From: Escherichia coli
Lineage (GTDB): Bacteria > Pseudomonadota > Gammaproteobacteria > Enterobacterales > Enterobacteriaceae
DNA: 10,116 nt
NCBI RefSeq assembly: GCF_003334305.1
Contig: NZ_QOWS01000043.1
Reading direction: 5' to 3' (one strand)
Part shown: positions 1 through 10,116 of the stretch, piece after piece
How positions within the stretch are numbered: the stretch's first letter is position 1
How the letters are laid out: each line of letters starts with the position of its first letter
The notes under the pieces: generated by a model
The model's database searches: none
What the model saw: the letters and a program-made list of their open reading frames with translations, nothing else
What the model was told of the DNA's origin: nothing
Translations under genes and position numbers: made by a program

Positions 1-76
1 GAGCGGTAGTTCAGTCGGTTAGAATACCTGCCTGTCACGCAGGGGGTCGCGGGTTCGAGTCCCGTCCGTTCCGCCA
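1..76 (+). tRNA. aspT: tRNA-Asp (anticodon GTC), truncated by 1 nt at the window edge (5' G missing)
   Basis: Sequence gagcggtagttcagtcggttagaatacctgcctgtcacgcagggggtcgcgggttcgagtcccgtccgttccgcca matches the E. coli tRNA-Asp sequence as I recall it, minus the first G. GTC anticodon at about 34-36 in the loop ctgtcac, T-arm ggttcgagtcc, encoded 3' CCA. The gene name is assigned by context (followed by tRNA-Trp and hdfR, as at the distal end of rrnC). Confidence 0.9.
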
Positions 77-84
77 CCCTAATT

Positions 85-160
85 AGGGGCGTAGTTCAAT
101 TGGTAGAGCACCGGTCTCCAAAACCGGGTGTTGGGAGTTCGAGTCTCTCCGCCCCTGCCA
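85..160 (+). tRNA. trpT: tRNA-Trp (anticodon CCA)
   Basis: 76-nt sequence aggggcgtagttcaattggtagagcaccggtctccaaaaccgggtgttgggagttcgagtctctccgcccctgcca matches E. coli tRNA-Trp as recalled. Anticodon CCA at 118-120, T-arm gttcgagtc, encoded CCA end. An 8-nt spacer (77-84) separates it from tRNA-Asp. Confidence 0.9.
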
Positions 161-165
161 GAAAT

Positions 166-195
166 CATCCTTAGCGAAAGCTAAGGATTTTTTTT
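166..195 (+). terminator. Rho-independent terminator downstream of the tRNA pair (end of the rRNA/tRNA transcription unit)
   Basis: Perfect 9-bp inverted repeat atccttagc (166-174) / gctaaggat (179-187) with a 4-nt loop gaaa, followed directly by a run of 8 T (188-195). Confidence 0.8.
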
Positions 196-255
196 ATCTG
201 AAATAACCCTCTCCGAAGTAAATCCTTCTACCGGCATCCTTGCCAGCCATTCATA

Positions 256-1095
256 TTAATACACTTCATCCAGCACGTTAATTTTCAAAAGATCGCGAAT
301 CAACGTATTTTTATCGCTATTTTGCAGCCATATGGCATAAAGCGGCCGTGAAAGTGTTGTGCTATCGACAACGGTATGCAGGCCGCCTTTTTTACGCGCC
401 CAGCTGACGGGTAGCCAGGTGCAACCATTAAGCATCGCAATCTGTTGCTGTGCCAGTTCAGCAGAACTGGTTGTCAGAATGGGCACTTCGTCAGCACCGA
501 TCAAACCTGCCTCATGCTGTTGAAAATCTGGCCCCCACTCAAGTCGCAGATAATTAAGATCTCCCTTTAGTTTTGAAGGGGCACTGGTATAAAGCGCTAA
601 AGTGAAATATCCCAGCAACTGACTACTAAATTCGTCCATTTTGGGCGCTTCAGTGGTAATAAGAAGATCAAGCTGGCGTTCATGCAGCTGTTTTACCAGA
701 GACTGCCGTTGGGCAATTCGCGCTTCGAACTGTAAGCCTGTATGGGCATCCTGATTTTGATACAAACGTCCCAGCCACTGATTAAGCATACATTCCCACA
801 ATGAGGCGCTGGCACCGATAGAAAACTCGTTATGTCGTGAGGTATGCGCCACCTCCTTGCGGGCGGCCTGCCAGGTGCTCATGAGCGTTTCTGCATAAGG
901 CAGTAGTTTTTCACCGGCAGCGGTTAAACGGATATTGTTTCTGTGGCGGGTGAAAAGGTTCACACCCAGTTGATTTTCCAGTTGTCTGATTCGAAAGCTC
1001 ACTGCTGACTGGGTCAGATAGAGCGATTCAGCCGCTCGACCAAAGTGACGCGTTCGGCTAACTTCCAGGAAAGTTTTTAACAATTCCGTATCCAC
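256..1095 (-). CDS. hdfR: LysR-family transcriptional regulator HdfR (279 aa), GTG start
   Basis: 279-aa ORF with an N-terminal LysR-type helix-turn-helix ([16 protein letters not shown]) and a C-terminal substrate-binding-like domain. The sequence matches HdfR/YifA as recalled. The first codon is GTG (plus-strand cac at 1093-1095), preceded on the coding strand by GGAGAG, an appropriately spaced Shine-Dalgarno. Position between the tRNAs and maoP/comM matches known synteny. Confidence 0.85.
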
Positions 1096-1162
1096 AGTGC
1101 TCTCCGCAAAATTATTTGTCGTTATGATTTAAATGTTTTGTTTTACACTCTGTCAAGCGTAA

Positions 1163-1179
1163 CTAATACTCCGCGCCAT
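1163..1179. promoter_or_regulatory. Candidate maoS site (17-bp cis element of the MaoP/maoS Ori macrodomain system) within the hdfR-maoP divergent promoter region
   Basis: Exact string ctaatactccgcgccat in the hdfR-maoP intergenic region. I recall this 17-mer as the published maoS sequence and this as its reported location. The identity is from memory and needs checking against the literature. Confidence 0.55.
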
Positions 1180-1213
1180 AACTAGCTCGGTCAAAGAATT
1201 AGGAGCGTGCAGG

Positions 1214-1552
1214 ATGGCGGAAAGCTTTACGACGACTAATCGATATTTCGACAATAAACATTATCCACGTGGATTCTCTCGTCATGGTGATTTCACCATC
1301 AAAGAGGCACAACTGCTTGAGCGTCATGGTTATGCCTTCAATGAGTTGGATCTTGGCAAACGCGAGCCGGTTACCGAGGAAGAGAAACTCTTCGTAGCAG
1401 TATGCCGTGGCGAACGTGAGCCAGTGACAGAAGCAGAACGCGTGTGGTCCAAGTATATGACGCGTATTAAGCGTCCAAAACGTTTTCACACCCTTTCCGG
1501 CGGTAAACCGCAGGTTGAAGGTGCTGAAGACTACACCGATTCTGATGATTAA
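1214..1552 (+). CDS. maoP: MaoP / YifE (DUF413 family, macrodomain Ori protein), 112 aa
   Basis: 112-aa ORF with ATG start at 1214 and an AGGAG Shine-Dalgarno at 1201-1205 (8-nt spacer). Sequence [42 protein letters not shown] matches YifE as recalled. Divergent from hdfR, convergent with comM. Confidence 0.85.
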
Positions 1553-1553
1553 T

Positions 1554-1576
1554 AAAAAGGGCGAAATGCCCTTTTT
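1554..1576. terminator. Bidirectional intrinsic terminator shared by convergent maoP (+) and comM (-)
   Basis: Stem aaaaagggc (1554-1562) / gcccttttt (1568-1576) with loop gaaat. The GC-rich core gggc/gccc is flanked by an A-run on the 5' side and a T-run on the 3' side, so either strand reads as hairpin plus U-tract. maoP stop is at 1550-1552 and comM stop at 1577-1579, directly abutting. Confidence 0.75.
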
Positions 1577-3097
1577 TTATGTCAGTAGTTTTTGCAGATG
1601 GATGAGCAAACGGTCAATCGCACGATAGCTAACTGCCTCCTGCAAATGCTGACGTGTGATAATGTCAGACTGATCAATATCAGCAATGGTTCGTGCAACT
1701 TTCAATAACCGCTGCCAGGCACGAATCGATAACCCCAGATGGATCAGTGTTCCTTCCAACCACATCGCATCTTCGCTCTCAAGTTTGCAGAATTGGCGTA
1801 TTTCCGGACTATCCAGCCAGGCATTCAGTTTATTCTGCCGCTTAAATTGGCGCTCTCTGGCGGCCATTACGCGTTGTTTAACGGTGGCGCTGCTTTCTCC
1901 CGGCACTACCGTTTTACTCAAAATGCCGGGGGGTGGTAATGGGATCTCCAGTGAGAGATCGAAGCGGTCGAGAAAGGGCCCCGAGAGCCGGTTGAGATAA
2001 CGTAATGTCTGTTCTGGCGTGCAGCGGTTATGGTTTCCCTGATAATGTCCGGTAGGGCTGGGATTCATCGCCGCAACAAGCTGGAAACGGGCTGGATAGG
2101 TTATTTTGGCTCGTGTGCGTGAAAGATGGATCTGCCCGGATTCAATCGGCTCTCGCAAGGCATCCAGTGTACGCCGTTCAAATTCAGGTAGCTCATCAAG
2201 AAAAAGCACGCCGTTATGCGCCAACGAAATTTCACCTGGCCCTGGAATTGCACCACCGCCCACCATCGCAGTTAACGACGCACTGTGATGCGGTGAGCGG
2301 AACGGGCGCTGCCGCCATTGTTTTTGTACTGATTCAGCATTTACCAGACTTAATATCGCAGCGCTCTCCAGTGCCTCTTCATTGCTTAAATCTGGCAACA
2401 GGCCATTAATACGGCTGGCGAGCATTGTTTTACCTGTTCCCGGCGGCCCAATCAGTAAAAGGTTGTGCCCGCCAGCGGCGGTAATTTCCAGTCCTCGCTT
2501 TCCTTGCTCCTGACCGACAACATCACTGAGATCATGTTGTAGCGCCCGGGATACTGCATCAGTTGGTTTCGGGCGTTCGAGAGCGTGCTTACCTTCCAGA
2601 AACGCACAGACAGCCTGCAGATGATCGGCTATCAGGCATCCTTCACCGTTAATTAGCCCCACTTCATCTTCGTTATCTTTCGCGACGATAATTTTTCTGC
2701 CCGACTTAATAGCTTCAGTTGCACTGGAGATTGCGCCGGGAACGCCACGCAGAGCGCCTGTAAGCGCCAGTTCTCCGACTAATTCATATTCATCTAACTT
2801 ATTGGCTGTAAGCTGTTCTGAGGCCGCCAGCAACGCAATGGCGATAGGTAAATCATATCGTCCCCCTTCTTTTGGCAGATCGGCTGGAGCCAGGTTGATG
2901 GTGATTTTTTTCGCCGGATATTCATATCCGCTATTGATAATGGCGCTGCGCACGCGATCGCGAGCTTCTTTTACAGTTGTTTCTGGTAAGCCCACCATCG
3001 TTAAGCCGGGTAGACCTTTACTGATATGTACCTCAACAGTGATTGGGGGCGCATTTACTCCCAGGGCTGCGCGGGTATGAACAATTGACAGTGACAT
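1577..3097 (-). CDS. comM: ComM / YifB, Mg-chelatase-like AAA+ ATPase (competence protein ComM homolog), 506 aa from the downstream ATG
   Basis: Long minus-strand ORF with Walker A (LLLIGPPGTGKTM) and Walker B (VLFLDELPEF) motifs and an N-terminal Lon-protease-like region. The six-frame track starts at the ATG at 3127 (516 aa), but the in-frame ATG at 3095-3097 is preceded on the coding strand by AAGGAGGG with about a 4-nt spacer, a near-consensus Shine-Dalgarno. It gives the 506-aa product beginning MSLSIVHTRA, which matches my recollection of YifB. Confidence 0.85.
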   Translation of the reverse strand: MSLSIVHTRAALGVNAPPITVEVHISKGLPGLTMVGLPETTVKEARDRVRSAIINSGYEYPAKKITINLAPADLPKEGGRYDLPIAIALLAASEQLTANKLDEYELVGELALTGALRGVPGAISSATEAIKSGRKIIVAKDNEDEVGLINGEGCLIADHLQAVCAFLEGKHALERPKPTDAVSRALQHDLSDVVGQEQGKRGLEITAAGGHNLLLIGPPGTGKTMLASRINGLLPDLSNEEALESAAILSLVNAESVQKQWRQRPFRSPHHSASLTAMVGGGAIPGPGEISLAHNGVLFLDELPEFERRTLDALREPIESGQIHLSRTRAKITYPARFQLVAAMNPSPTGHYQGNHNRCTPEQTLRYLNRLSGPFLDRFDLSLEIPLPPPGILSKTVVPGESSATVKQRVMAARERQFKRQNKLNAWLDSPEIRQFCKLESEDAMWLEGTLIHLGLSIRAWQRLLKVARTIADIDQSDIITRQHLQEAVSYRAIDRLLIHLQKLLT

Positions 3098-3304
3098 AAG
3101 CCCTCCTTGAGTCACTATTATGTGCATAAGATATCGCTGCTGTAGCCCGCTAATTCGTGAATTTTAGTGGCTGATTCCTGTTTATTTGTGCAAGTGAAGT
3201 TGAGTTGTTCTGGCGGTGGAATGATGCTCGCAAAAATGCAGCGGACAAAGGATGAACTACGAGGAAGGGAACAACATTCATACTGAAATTGAATTTTTTT
3301 CACT

Positions 3305-3380
3305 CACTATTTTCTTTTTAAAAAACAACAATTTCTATTGAAATTATTAAACGCATCATAAAAATCGGCCAAAAAATATC
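3305..3380 (+). promoter_or_regulatory. AT-rich upstream activating region of the ilv operon promoter (UP-element / IHF-binding region expected here)
   Basis: About 80% A+T stretch with several A5-6 tracts (3320-3325, 3360-3364, 3371-3376) immediately upstream of the candidate core promoter. Published work on ilvGMEDA describes an upstream AT-rich activating region with an IHF site and a non-productive upstream promoter. Exact site boundaries cannot be fixed from sequence alone. Confidence 0.4.
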
Positions 3381-3421
3381 TTGTGCTATTCGCAAAATCT
3401 ATGGTAACTCTTTAGGCATTC
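3381..3421 (+). promoter_or_regulatory. Candidate core promoter and transcription start region for ilvLXGMEDA
   Basis: Candidate -35 TTGTGC (3381-3386) and candidate -10 hexamers in 3400-3410 (tatggt / taactc). A start near 3420 would give a leader of about 180 nt ending at the attenuator T-run (3596-3603), consistent with the recalled leader length. The hexamer assignment is uncertain. Confidence 0.35.
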
Positions 3422-3449
3422 CTTCGAACAAGATGCAAGAAAAGACAAA

Positions 3450-3548
3450 ATGACAGCCCTTCTACGAGTGATTAGCCTGGTCGTGATTAGCGTGGTGGTG
3501 ATTATTATCCCACCGTGCGGGGCTGCACTTGGACGAGGAAAGGCTTAG
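3450..3548 (+). CDS. ilvL: ilv operon leader peptide (32 aa): MTALLRVISLVVISVVVIIIPPCGAALGRGKA
   Basis: ATG at 3450 through TAG at 3546-3548. 15 of 32 codons encode Leu (4), Val (6) or Ile (5), the hallmark of the branched-chain amino acid attenuation leader. An intrinsic terminator lies immediately downstream. Confidence 0.9.
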   Translation: MTALLRVISLVVISVVVIIIPPCGAALGRGKA

Positions 3549-3569
3549 AGATCAAGCCTTAACGAACTA

Positions 3570-3603
3570 AGACCCCCGCACCGAAAGGTCCGGGGGTTTT
3601 TTT
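3570..3603 (+). terminator. ilv attenuator (Rho-independent terminator of the leader transcript)
   Basis: GC-rich stem acccccg (3571-3577) / cgggggt (3590-3596) followed by 8 consecutive T (3596-3603), 22 nt after the ilvL stop codon. Confidence 0.85.
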
Positions 3604-3634
3604 TGACCTTAAAAACATAACCGAGGAGCAGACA

Positions 3635-3685
3635 ATGAATAACAGCACAAAATTCTGTTTCTCAAGATTCAGGACGGGGAACTAA
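3635..3685 (+). CDS. ilvX: Small ORF ilvX (16 aa: [16 protein letters not shown]) between the attenuator and ilvG
   Basis: ATG at 3635-3637 preceded by GAGGAG (3624-3629), stop TAA at 3683-3685, two nt before the ilvG ATG. It matches the position and sequence of the described E. coli small protein IlvX as I recall it. Translation cannot be judged from sequence alone. Confidence 0.55.
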
Positions 3686-3687
3686 CT

Positions 3688-5334
3688 ATGAATGGCGCAC
3701 AGTGGGTGGTACATGCGTTGCGGGCACAGGGTGTGAACACCGTTTTCGGTTATCCGGGTGGCGCAATTATGCCGGTTTACGATGCATTGTATGACGGCGG
3801 CGTGGAGCACTTGCTGTGCCGACATGAGCAGGGTGCGGCAATGGCGGCTATCGGTTATGCCCGTGCTACCGGCAAAACTGGCGTATGTATCGCCACGTCT
3901 GGTCCGGGCGCAACCAACCTGATAACCGGGCTTGCGGACGCACTGTTAGATTCTATCCCTGTTGTTGCCATCACCGGTCAAGTGTCCGCACCGTTTATCG
4001 GCACGGACGCATTTCAGGAAGTGGATGTCCTGGGATTGTCGTTAGCCTGTACCAAGCACAGCTTTCTGGTGCAGTCGCTGGAAGAGTTGCCGCGCATTAT
4101 GGCTGAAGCATTCGACGTTGCCAGCTCAGGTCGTCCTGGTCCGGTTCTGGTCGATATCCCAAAAGATATCCAGCTAGCCAGCGGTGACCTGGAACCGTGG
4201 TTCACCACCGTTGAAAACGAAGTGACTTTCCCACATGCCGAAGTTGAGCAAGCGCGCCAGATGCTGGCAAAAGCGCAAAAACCGATGCTGTACGTTGGTG
4301 GTGGCGTGGGTATGGCGCAGGCAGTTCCTGCTTTACGAGAATTTCTCGCTACCACAAAAATGCCTGCCACCTGCACGCTGAAAGGGCTGGGCGCAGTTGA
4401 AGCAGATTATCCGTACTATCTGGGCATGCTGGGAATGCATGGCACCAAAGCGGCGAACTTCGCGGTGCAGGAGTGCGACTTGCTGATCGCCGTGGGTGCA
4501 CGTTTTGATGACCGGGTGACCGGCAAACTGAACACCTTCGCACCACACGCCAGTGTTATCCATATGGATATCGACCCGGCAGAAATGAACAAGCTGCGTC
4601 AGGCACATGTGGCATTACAAGGTGATTTAAATGCTCTGTTACCAGCATTACAGCAGCCGTTAAATATCAATGACTGGCAGCTACACTGCGCGCAGCTGCG
4701 TGATGAACATGCCTGGCGTTACGACCATCCCGGTGACGCTATCTACGCGCCATTGTTGTTAAAACAACTGTCGGATCGTAAACCTGCGGATTGCGTCGTG
4801 ACCACAGATGTGGGGCAGCACCAGATGTGGGCCGCGCAGCACATCGCACACACTCGCCCGGAAAATTTCATTACCTCCAGCGGCTTAGGCACCATGGGTT
4901 TCGGTTTACCAGCGGCGGTTGGCGCACAAGTCGCACGACCGAACGATACTGTCGTCTGTATCTCCGGTGACGGCTCTTTCATGATGAATGTGCAAGAGCT
5001 GGGCACCGTAAAACGCAAGCAGTTACCGTTGAAAATCGTCTTACTCGATAACCAACGGTTAGGGATGGTTCGACAATGGCAGCAACTGTTTTTTCAGGAA
5101 CGATACAGCGAAACCACCCTTACTGATAACCCCGATTTCCTCATGTTAGCCAGCGCCTTCGGCATCCCTGGCCAACACATCACCCGTAAAGACCAGGTTG
5201 AAGCGGCACTCGACACCATGCTGAACAGTGATGGGCCATACCTGCTTCATGTCTCAATCGACGAACTTGAGAACGTCTGGCCGCTGGTGCCGCCTGGCGC
5301 CAGTAATTCAGAAATGTTGGAGAAATTATCATGA
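3688..5334 (+). CDS. ilvG: Acetolactate synthase II (AHAS II) large catalytic subunit, intact 548 aa
   Basis: Uninterrupted 548-aa ORF starting [25 protein letters not shown] with a thiamine-diphosphate binding motif ([14 protein letters not shown]...LDN). GGGGA Shine-Dalgarno-like sequence 8 nt upstream. Followed by ilvM with a 4-nt overlap. Confidence 0.95.

Positions 5335-10013: not shown

Positions 10014-10116
<103 letters not shown>

Follow-up and report, generated by a model that had tools for sequence, protein, structure and literature searches.

Of the seven Escherichia coli rRNA operons, only rrnC is known to have a distal tRNA-Trp gene. Distal tRNA genes after the 5S gene are likewise found in rrnH (aspU) and rrnD (thrV), and tRNA-Trp has been described as carried by rrnC only, unlike the other rrn operons (PMC5179076). 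This gene, trpT, is the single, essential tRNA-Trp gene, and gltU-aspT-trpT of rrnC has been handled as one transcription unit that is essential through trpT (PMC11480407). In a further study, which cites Young 1979 for the synthesis of TrpT from a long transcript of the operon, insertion of an rrnB T1/T2 cassette upstream of trpT was needed to uncouple trpT from rrnC (PMC12956327). The T1 and T2 terminators of rrnB are also intrinsic terminators that end an rrn operon, and they too are used as vector parts. However, the 266-bp rrnB cassette holds two terminators in tandem, whereas the rrnC locus analysed here contains one terminator-like site in 1.6 kb, a stretch running from trpT through hdfR and maoP.

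The sequence under study lies at the start of a 10,116-nt stretch of E. coli DNA (contig NZ_QOWS01000043.1 of assembly GCF_003334305.1), which as a whole is referred to here as the window. Its closest described counterpart is the distal region of rrnC in strain K-12 (rrfC-aspT-trpT and the terminator), with which it shares the same sequence over positions 1-300 as well as gene order, spacers, hairpin and the flanking hdfR. No difference from K-12 was found within 1-300, whereas elsewhere the window has an intact ilvG and what looks like an IS621 end after ilvA. The features of the region are as follows, in window coordinates.

1..76, plus strand: aspT, tRNA-Asp(GUC), without its first base (G); from Rfam, identity to K-12, ARAGORN on the K-12 copy and RefSeq.
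77..84, plus strand: spacer between the two tRNA genes, CCCTAATT, 8 nt; read from the sequence.
85..160, plus strand: trpT, tRNA-Trp(CCA), the sole E. coli tRNA-Trp gene; from ARAGORN, Rfam and identity to K-12.
161..166, plus strand: linker GAAATC, 6 nt, A-rich, from the CCA end to the stem; read from the sequence.
167..188, plus strand: rrnC terminator hairpin, a 9-bp stem (ATCCTTAGC / GCTAAGGAT) with a GAAA tetraloop; from the pattern scan, the fold and RNAalifold.
189..195, plus strand: tract of seven T (U-tract), the expected 3' end of the rrnC primary transcript; from the sequence and the scan.
256..1095, minus strand: hdfR, a LysR-type regulator, convergent, given as context outside the operon; from an ORF of 279 aa and RefSeq hdfR in M8 and K-12.

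Alignment of window 1-300 to E. coli K-12 MG1655 gave 100% identity with 3,946,873-3,947,172, such that window position p corresponds to MG1655 coordinate 3,946,872 + p on the plus strand. The first mismatch is at window position 306. Over 10 kb the window is 98.5% identical to MG1655 and 99.4% identical to strain M8, and positions 1-1500 are 100% identical to the latter. In the alignments with K-12 and M8 the first base of the window is base 2 of aspT, with the 5' G as the single base absent, and the RefSeq annotation of tRNA-Asp in M8 starts one base ahead of the start of the match. Positions 1-1500 were matched in 5,426 of 5,426 complete E. coli genomes, many at 100%, and the trpT-hdfR-maoP junction was found in the same 5,426/5,426. 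The segment spanning tRNA-Trp and the terminator (77-200) was present in all 5,426 of these genomes, with at least 99% identity in 5,415 of them; its median is one place per genome and nearly all copies are single. With tRNA-Asp included, the 1,500-nt query matches at a median of 3 places per genome in the same set, and the additional matches presumably correspond to the remaining tRNA-Asp genes, aspU and aspV. Because the Trp-terminator segment occurs at a median of one place and the Asp-containing query at three, it is the Asp and Trp pair that uniquely marks rrnC. We take the locus to lie about 20 kb clockwise of oriC.

Both tRNA genes were recovered with the Rfam tRNA model RF00005, the first at window 1-73 (59.6 bits against a gathering score of 29, with a 5'-truncation flag and model positions 2-71) and the second at 85-157 (64.6 bits). 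The GTC anticodon of aspT is located at 34-36, and the CCA ends are gene-encoded at 74-76 for aspT and at 158-160 for trpT. The trpT sequence is identical to K-12 trpT, while aspT is 100% identical from its base 2. When run on the window, ARAGORN called tRNA-Trp(cca) at 85-160 and missed the first tRNA because its 5' G falls outside the window; on the full-length K-12 copy it called tRNA-Asp(gtc) followed by tRNA-Trp(cca). A wrong tRNA-Asp call was considered as well, and is ruled out by the 5'-truncated Rfam match together with the ARAGORN call on the full K-12 copy.

In K-12 the genes upstream and within the unit are ordered yieP / rrsC, gltU, rrlC, rrfC, aspT, trpT (16S, tRNA-Glu, 23S, 5S, tRNA-Asp, tRNA-Trp), which is rrnC. 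The annotated order in M8 is yieP on the minus strand, then 16S, tRNA-Glu, 23S, 5S, tRNA-Asp and tRNA-Trp, followed by hdfR (minus strand), maoP, yifB (minus strand) and ilvLXGMEDA. In both strains the gap from 5S to tRNA-Asp is 52-54 nt and that from tRNA-Asp to tRNA-Trp is 8 nt. The rRNA genes and tRNA-Glu are thus present upstream on the same strand in K-12 and M8, and the distal Asp and Trp genes are found with yieP on one flank and hdfR-maoP-yifB-ilv on the other. The rRNA genes lie outside the window, and for the strain from which the window derives their presence is predicted from K-12, M8 and the other matching genomes. Recombination can occur between rrn operons, so that from the window alone the name rrnC strictly applies to the distal end only. 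The identities of the genes, their order and orientation and the single-copy status of the Trp segment are direct observations. Taken together, window 1-195 is almost certainly the 3'-terminal part of E. coli rrnC (rrsC-gltU-rrlC-rrfC-aspT-trpT), which would be transcribed as one precursor that ends at an intrinsic terminator after trpT. None of the results of the analysis spoke against this.

An initial annotation, made from the sequence of the window, had proposed that it opens one base inside a tRNA-Asp that is paired with a tRNA-Trp, with GTC and CCA anticodons. The alignment, in which only the 5' G of aspT is missing, bears this out, and the anticodons were recovered by Rfam, by ARAGORN on the window for Trp and by ARAGORN on the K-12 copy for Asp. 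The tRNA scan that it suggested as a check accordingly returned both genes. Its assignment to rrnC by synteny agrees with the K-12 gene names, the single-copy Trp segment and the universal hdfR-maoP junction, and the 5S and 23S genes that it expected upstream are present there in K-12 and M8 along with 16S. It was also correct in placing hdfR on the opposite strand, facing the operon. One phrase needs amending: the window was said to lie immediately downstream of an rrn operon. An rrn operon does adjoin it upstream in K-12 and M8, but the two tRNA genes are themselves the last genes of rrnC, and the window therefore starts inside the operon.

From the literature and the arrangement of the genes, a route for expression of the region can be proposed. 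RNA polymerase would start at the rrnC promoters (P1/P2), about 5 kb upstream of the window, and would produce one precursor carrying 16S, tRNA-Glu, 23S, 5S, tRNA-Asp and tRNA-Trp. It would then stop at the intrinsic (Rho-independent) terminator located 6 nt past the tRNA-Trp CCA, leaving a 3' end at approximately 189-195. The tRNAs would be freed by RNase P at their 5' ends and by endonucleolytic cleavage followed by exonucleolytic trimming at their 3' ends. The terminator may in addition shield the convergent hdfR, the stop codon of which is at 256, 60 nt past the T-tract, from very heavy antisense transcription.

A pattern scan of window 1-1600 returned one terminator-like site only, at 167-195, which differs by one base from the terminator given as 166-195 in the initial annotation. 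A stable stem-loop followed by a U-tract, the arrangement expected of an intrinsic terminator downstream of the last gene, is found here, and between the 3' end of 23S and hdfR the site after trpT is the sole one of its kind. The scan count itself is not enriched, as 1.6 sites were expected in shuffled versions of the 1.6 kb. Because the count is not evidence, the z-score of the fold and comparative controls were used instead. Folding of 161-200 gave -14.3 kcal/mol with z = -4.75, and 0 of 200 shuffles folded as well. The significance of the hairpin comes from its position 6 nt after the CCA, from this z-score and from its conservation across species.

Cassettes that combine the lpp promoter with the rrnC terminator are a long-used module for tRNA expression. 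The paper of Young in 1979 (J Biol Chem 254:12725) bears the title 'Transcription termination in the E. coli ribosomal RNA operon rrnC', and the E. coli hairpin is reportedly its rrnC terminator. A later publication cites Young 1979, along with other references, for the 'rrnC terminator' of tRNA expression plasmids (PMC8887418). The exact hairpin was found downstream of a suppressor tRNA in the published sequence of a plasmid, and a primer used in vector construction that is identical to window 161-203 carries it as well. Release of RNA polymerase at the hairpin is predicted here, with support from the literature and from this reuse in vectors.

Conservation was examined with a scan using the 28-nt 3' end of trpT as query against one genome per species, which gave at least 122 loci. 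Loci were regarded as syntenic when tRNA-Asp was found upstream and/or an HdfR homologue converged downstream, and 81 of the matches listed are of this kind. The other 41 of the 122 loci listed (e.g. Pseudoalteromonas, Psychrosphaera and alphaproteobacterial MAGs) share the 3' half of tRNA-Trp only and were excluded from the terminator analysis. An exact-match test for the 3' half of tRNA-Asp undercounted synteny, and ARAGORN was applied to each locus instead. Among the matches listed, ARAGORN called both tRNAs at 64 syntenic loci, and at 60 of these the spacer between Asp and Trp measures 6-9 nt. An HdfR homologue that converges on tRNA-Trp lies downstream of it in 69 of 81. Fewer than 700 nt of sequence were available upstream of tRNA-Trp in 71/81 of the syntenic loci among the matches listed, many of them at a contig end, which is as expected because assemblies break in rRNA repeats. 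Six non-Escherichia loci among the matches listed have long upstream sequence (Lonsdalea, two Photorhabdus, Arsenophonus, Erwinia and Prodigiosinella), and all six show the order 16S, tRNA, 23S, 5S, tRNA-Asp, tRNA-Trp.

A perfect stem of at least 9 bp with a T-run, located within 90 nt after the CCA of tRNA-Trp, was detected in 73 of the 81 syntenic loci among the matches listed. With the same settings it was detected in 16 of 1,620 shuffles of these sequences and in 11 of 1,358 90-mers drawn at random from the genomic sequence of the loci. Fifty loci among the matches listed have the hairpin in the proximal position, and the 47 distinct sequences from these were anchored at the tRNA 3' end and aligned with MAFFT, which is blind to structure. 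RNAalifold applied to this alignment returned exactly the nine pairs of the E. coli stem, seven of which have compensatory double changes. The pair at alignment columns 32/45, for example, is U-A in 20 sequences, C-G in 19 and A-U in 8. All 423 of 423 pair cells are paired, a percentage that is inflated by the choice of sequences with a proximal hairpin and for which the background rates of about 1% are the fair control. Both sides of the pair are changed in 70 cells, as compared with 14.9 +/- 6.8 in shuffles, and 0 of 500 shuffles reached the observed values on four of the five pairing measures. In controls where the pairing was slid along the alignment, the paired fraction falls to 35-57%. 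The hairpin and its conservation with covariation are observed directly, and what is conserved at the orthologous positions is the structure and not the sequence. At least six T are present in the first 8 nt past the stem in 47/47 aligned sequences among the matches listed.

The linker from the CCA to the stem is 6-13 nt elsewhere in Enterobacterales and A-rich in nearly all of the matches listed. In many species it pairs with the T-tract and extends the stem into a symmetric terminator (alignment columns 13-25); the E. coli linker GAAATC (161-166) is the shortest and least A-rich version among the matches listed. Most Morganellaceae together with Arsenophonus (26 loci among the matches listed) have a different stem, located 33-43 nt past the CCA, and these loci were kept out of the alignment of the proximal class. 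In Morganellaceae such a hairpin takes the place of the proximal one at loci L011, L019, L021, L023 and others, an example of its sequence being AACCCAGCT-ATTT-AGCTGGGTT. Five Photorhabdus loci (L006, L034, L073, L110 and L118) gave no hairpin with a T-run within 90 nt under the settings used. At these five loci hdfR is 700-900 nt away, and something has apparently been inserted.

Several other readings of the region were weighed against termination of the rrnC precursor at the hairpin. That the hairpin serves chiefly in RNA processing or stability, or is a palindrome by chance, and is not a transcription terminator, is scarcely credible. Only 4 of the 9 pairs in the stem are G-C, and shuffled sequence yields terminator-like sites in equal number under the consensus scan. 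Against this reading stand the z-score of -4.75, the at least six T within the first 8 nt 3' of the stem in every aligned species among the matches listed, a conservation with compensatory changes that is set against a background of about 1%, and the reuse of the hairpin in plasmids as a working terminator. A separate aspT-trpT transcription unit, with a promoter between 5S and aspT and a short tRNA transcript ended by the terminator, is very improbable. Such a promoter would have to fit in a spacer of only 52 nt without a sigma-70-like consensus, and a consensus scan from the 3' end of 23S to aspT found no promoter-like (sigma-70-like) consensus and no terminator-like site, the stretch after 5S included. 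One paper does remark, with weak sourcing, on a promoter belonging to the distal tRNAs themselves (PMC5179076), although reference 18 behind it is Berg et al. 1987, which by its title concerns translation within the 16S gene of rrnB and appears unrelated. The rrnC tRNAs placed on a plasmid with their 'natural promoter' gave no complementation (PMC11480407), which indicates that the expression signals at the locus are not trivial. However, TrpT is treated as processed from the long operon transcript (PMC12956327), and the tight linkage of 5S, Asp and Trp is conserved across Enterobacterales among the matches listed.

Termination of the rrnC precursor at the hairpin could also be extended, and not replaced, by a bidirectional role in which the hairpin is shared with hdfR, ends hdfR transcripts as well and insulates both units; this is possible but doubtful. 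Bidirectional terminators of convergent genes have a palindromic stem with an A-tract and a T-tract, as is likewise the case here in most Enterobacterales. The stem is a perfect palindrome and the only terminator-like structure from trpT to the hdfR stop, and the minus-strand fold of a 56-nt stretch is -16.4 kcal/mol with z = -2.65. Among the matches listed, 42 of the 47 aligned Enterobacterales sequences have at least five T in the 8 nt past the stem when read on the minus strand, a T-rich tail that is the complement of an A-rich tract ahead of the stem on the plus strand, and the convergent hdfR is kept in 69 of the 81 syntenic loci. Unlike in bidirectional terminators, the minus-strand U-tract of the E. 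coli hairpin is degenerate: in E. coli and E. albertii the tail is GAUUUCUG, with 4 of 8 U, interrupted and below the threshold of the scan. The A-rich linker, moreover, may be nothing more than an AU-rich, single-stranded site for processing downstream of the tRNA. Literature searches on hdfR linked to bidirectional terminators found none, and a general search on bidirectional terminators gave nothing specific to the trpT-hdfR locus. A more elaborate version, which we regard as speculative and rather unlikely, would have the trpT hairpin act as a conserved two-way insulator between the antiterminated, heavy transcription of rrnC and the weak convergent transcription of hdfR; in E. coli, where the minus-strand U-tract would have decayed, the ends of hdfR transcripts would need something else (e.g. 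head-on polymerase collisions at the hairpin). An independent aspT-trpT promoter is a still weaker alternative than this. The two-way function in E. coli, if true, would be a minor and unsurprising addition to the end of the rrnC precursor at 167-195.

Other features were noted in the remainder of the window. At 10042-10116 it departs from K-12 right after 'TTATCAGGCCT' of the REP element downstream of ilvA. Beyond the REP it matches strain M8, in which the CDS of an IS110-like IS621 transposase starts 117 nt past the end of the window. The 87-nt end piece is multi-copy, being found in 2,233 of 5,426 E. coli genomes at a median of 5 places, and it resembles the left non-coding end of an IS621 copy that has inserted into the REP, with the window cut about 75 nt into that end. 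This left non-coding end is presumably the region that encodes the 'bridge RNA' of IS621. The ilvG gene is intact, with a 548-aa ORF at 3688-5334, while in K-12, which is without the 'AT' at 4664-4665, it is a pseudogene; the window is therefore from a non-K-12 strain. Rfam family RF02744, 'Rev39_5p_UTR', described as a 5'UTR family of soft-rot Enterobacteriaceae, matches window 3379-3668 with 157 bits. By offset from the M8 annotation, this match spans the ilvL leader peptide/attenuator and half of ilvX, just upstream of ilvG, and the equivalent position is matched in the Lonsdalea and Erwinia loci as well. The family thus seems to be the ilvGMEDA leader by a different name. The longest ORF for yifB (minus strand, 1577-3127) starts at an ATG and encodes 516 aa, as opposed to the 506 aa (1,521 nt) of RefSeq in M8 and K-12, and this gap in length is only a difference in the choice of start codon.

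Window 1-200 is the well-known tail of rrnC, already known in full and ordinary. The initial annotation had judged it useful for anchoring and not novel, and nothing new was found that alters this view. The value of the region is indeed as an anchor, through which the window is placed in E. coli from MG1655 coordinate 3,946,873 onward, plus strand. The use of the hairpin as a standard part in engineering, like the essentiality of trpT as the sole tRNA-Trp gene, belongs to textbook or registry knowledge. The covariation adds no new kind of element. The region does explain why a very strong transcription unit abuts hdfR, and across the Enterobacterales the comparison provides a clean example of covariation, with the structure kept throughout the order while the sequence of the stem turns over.
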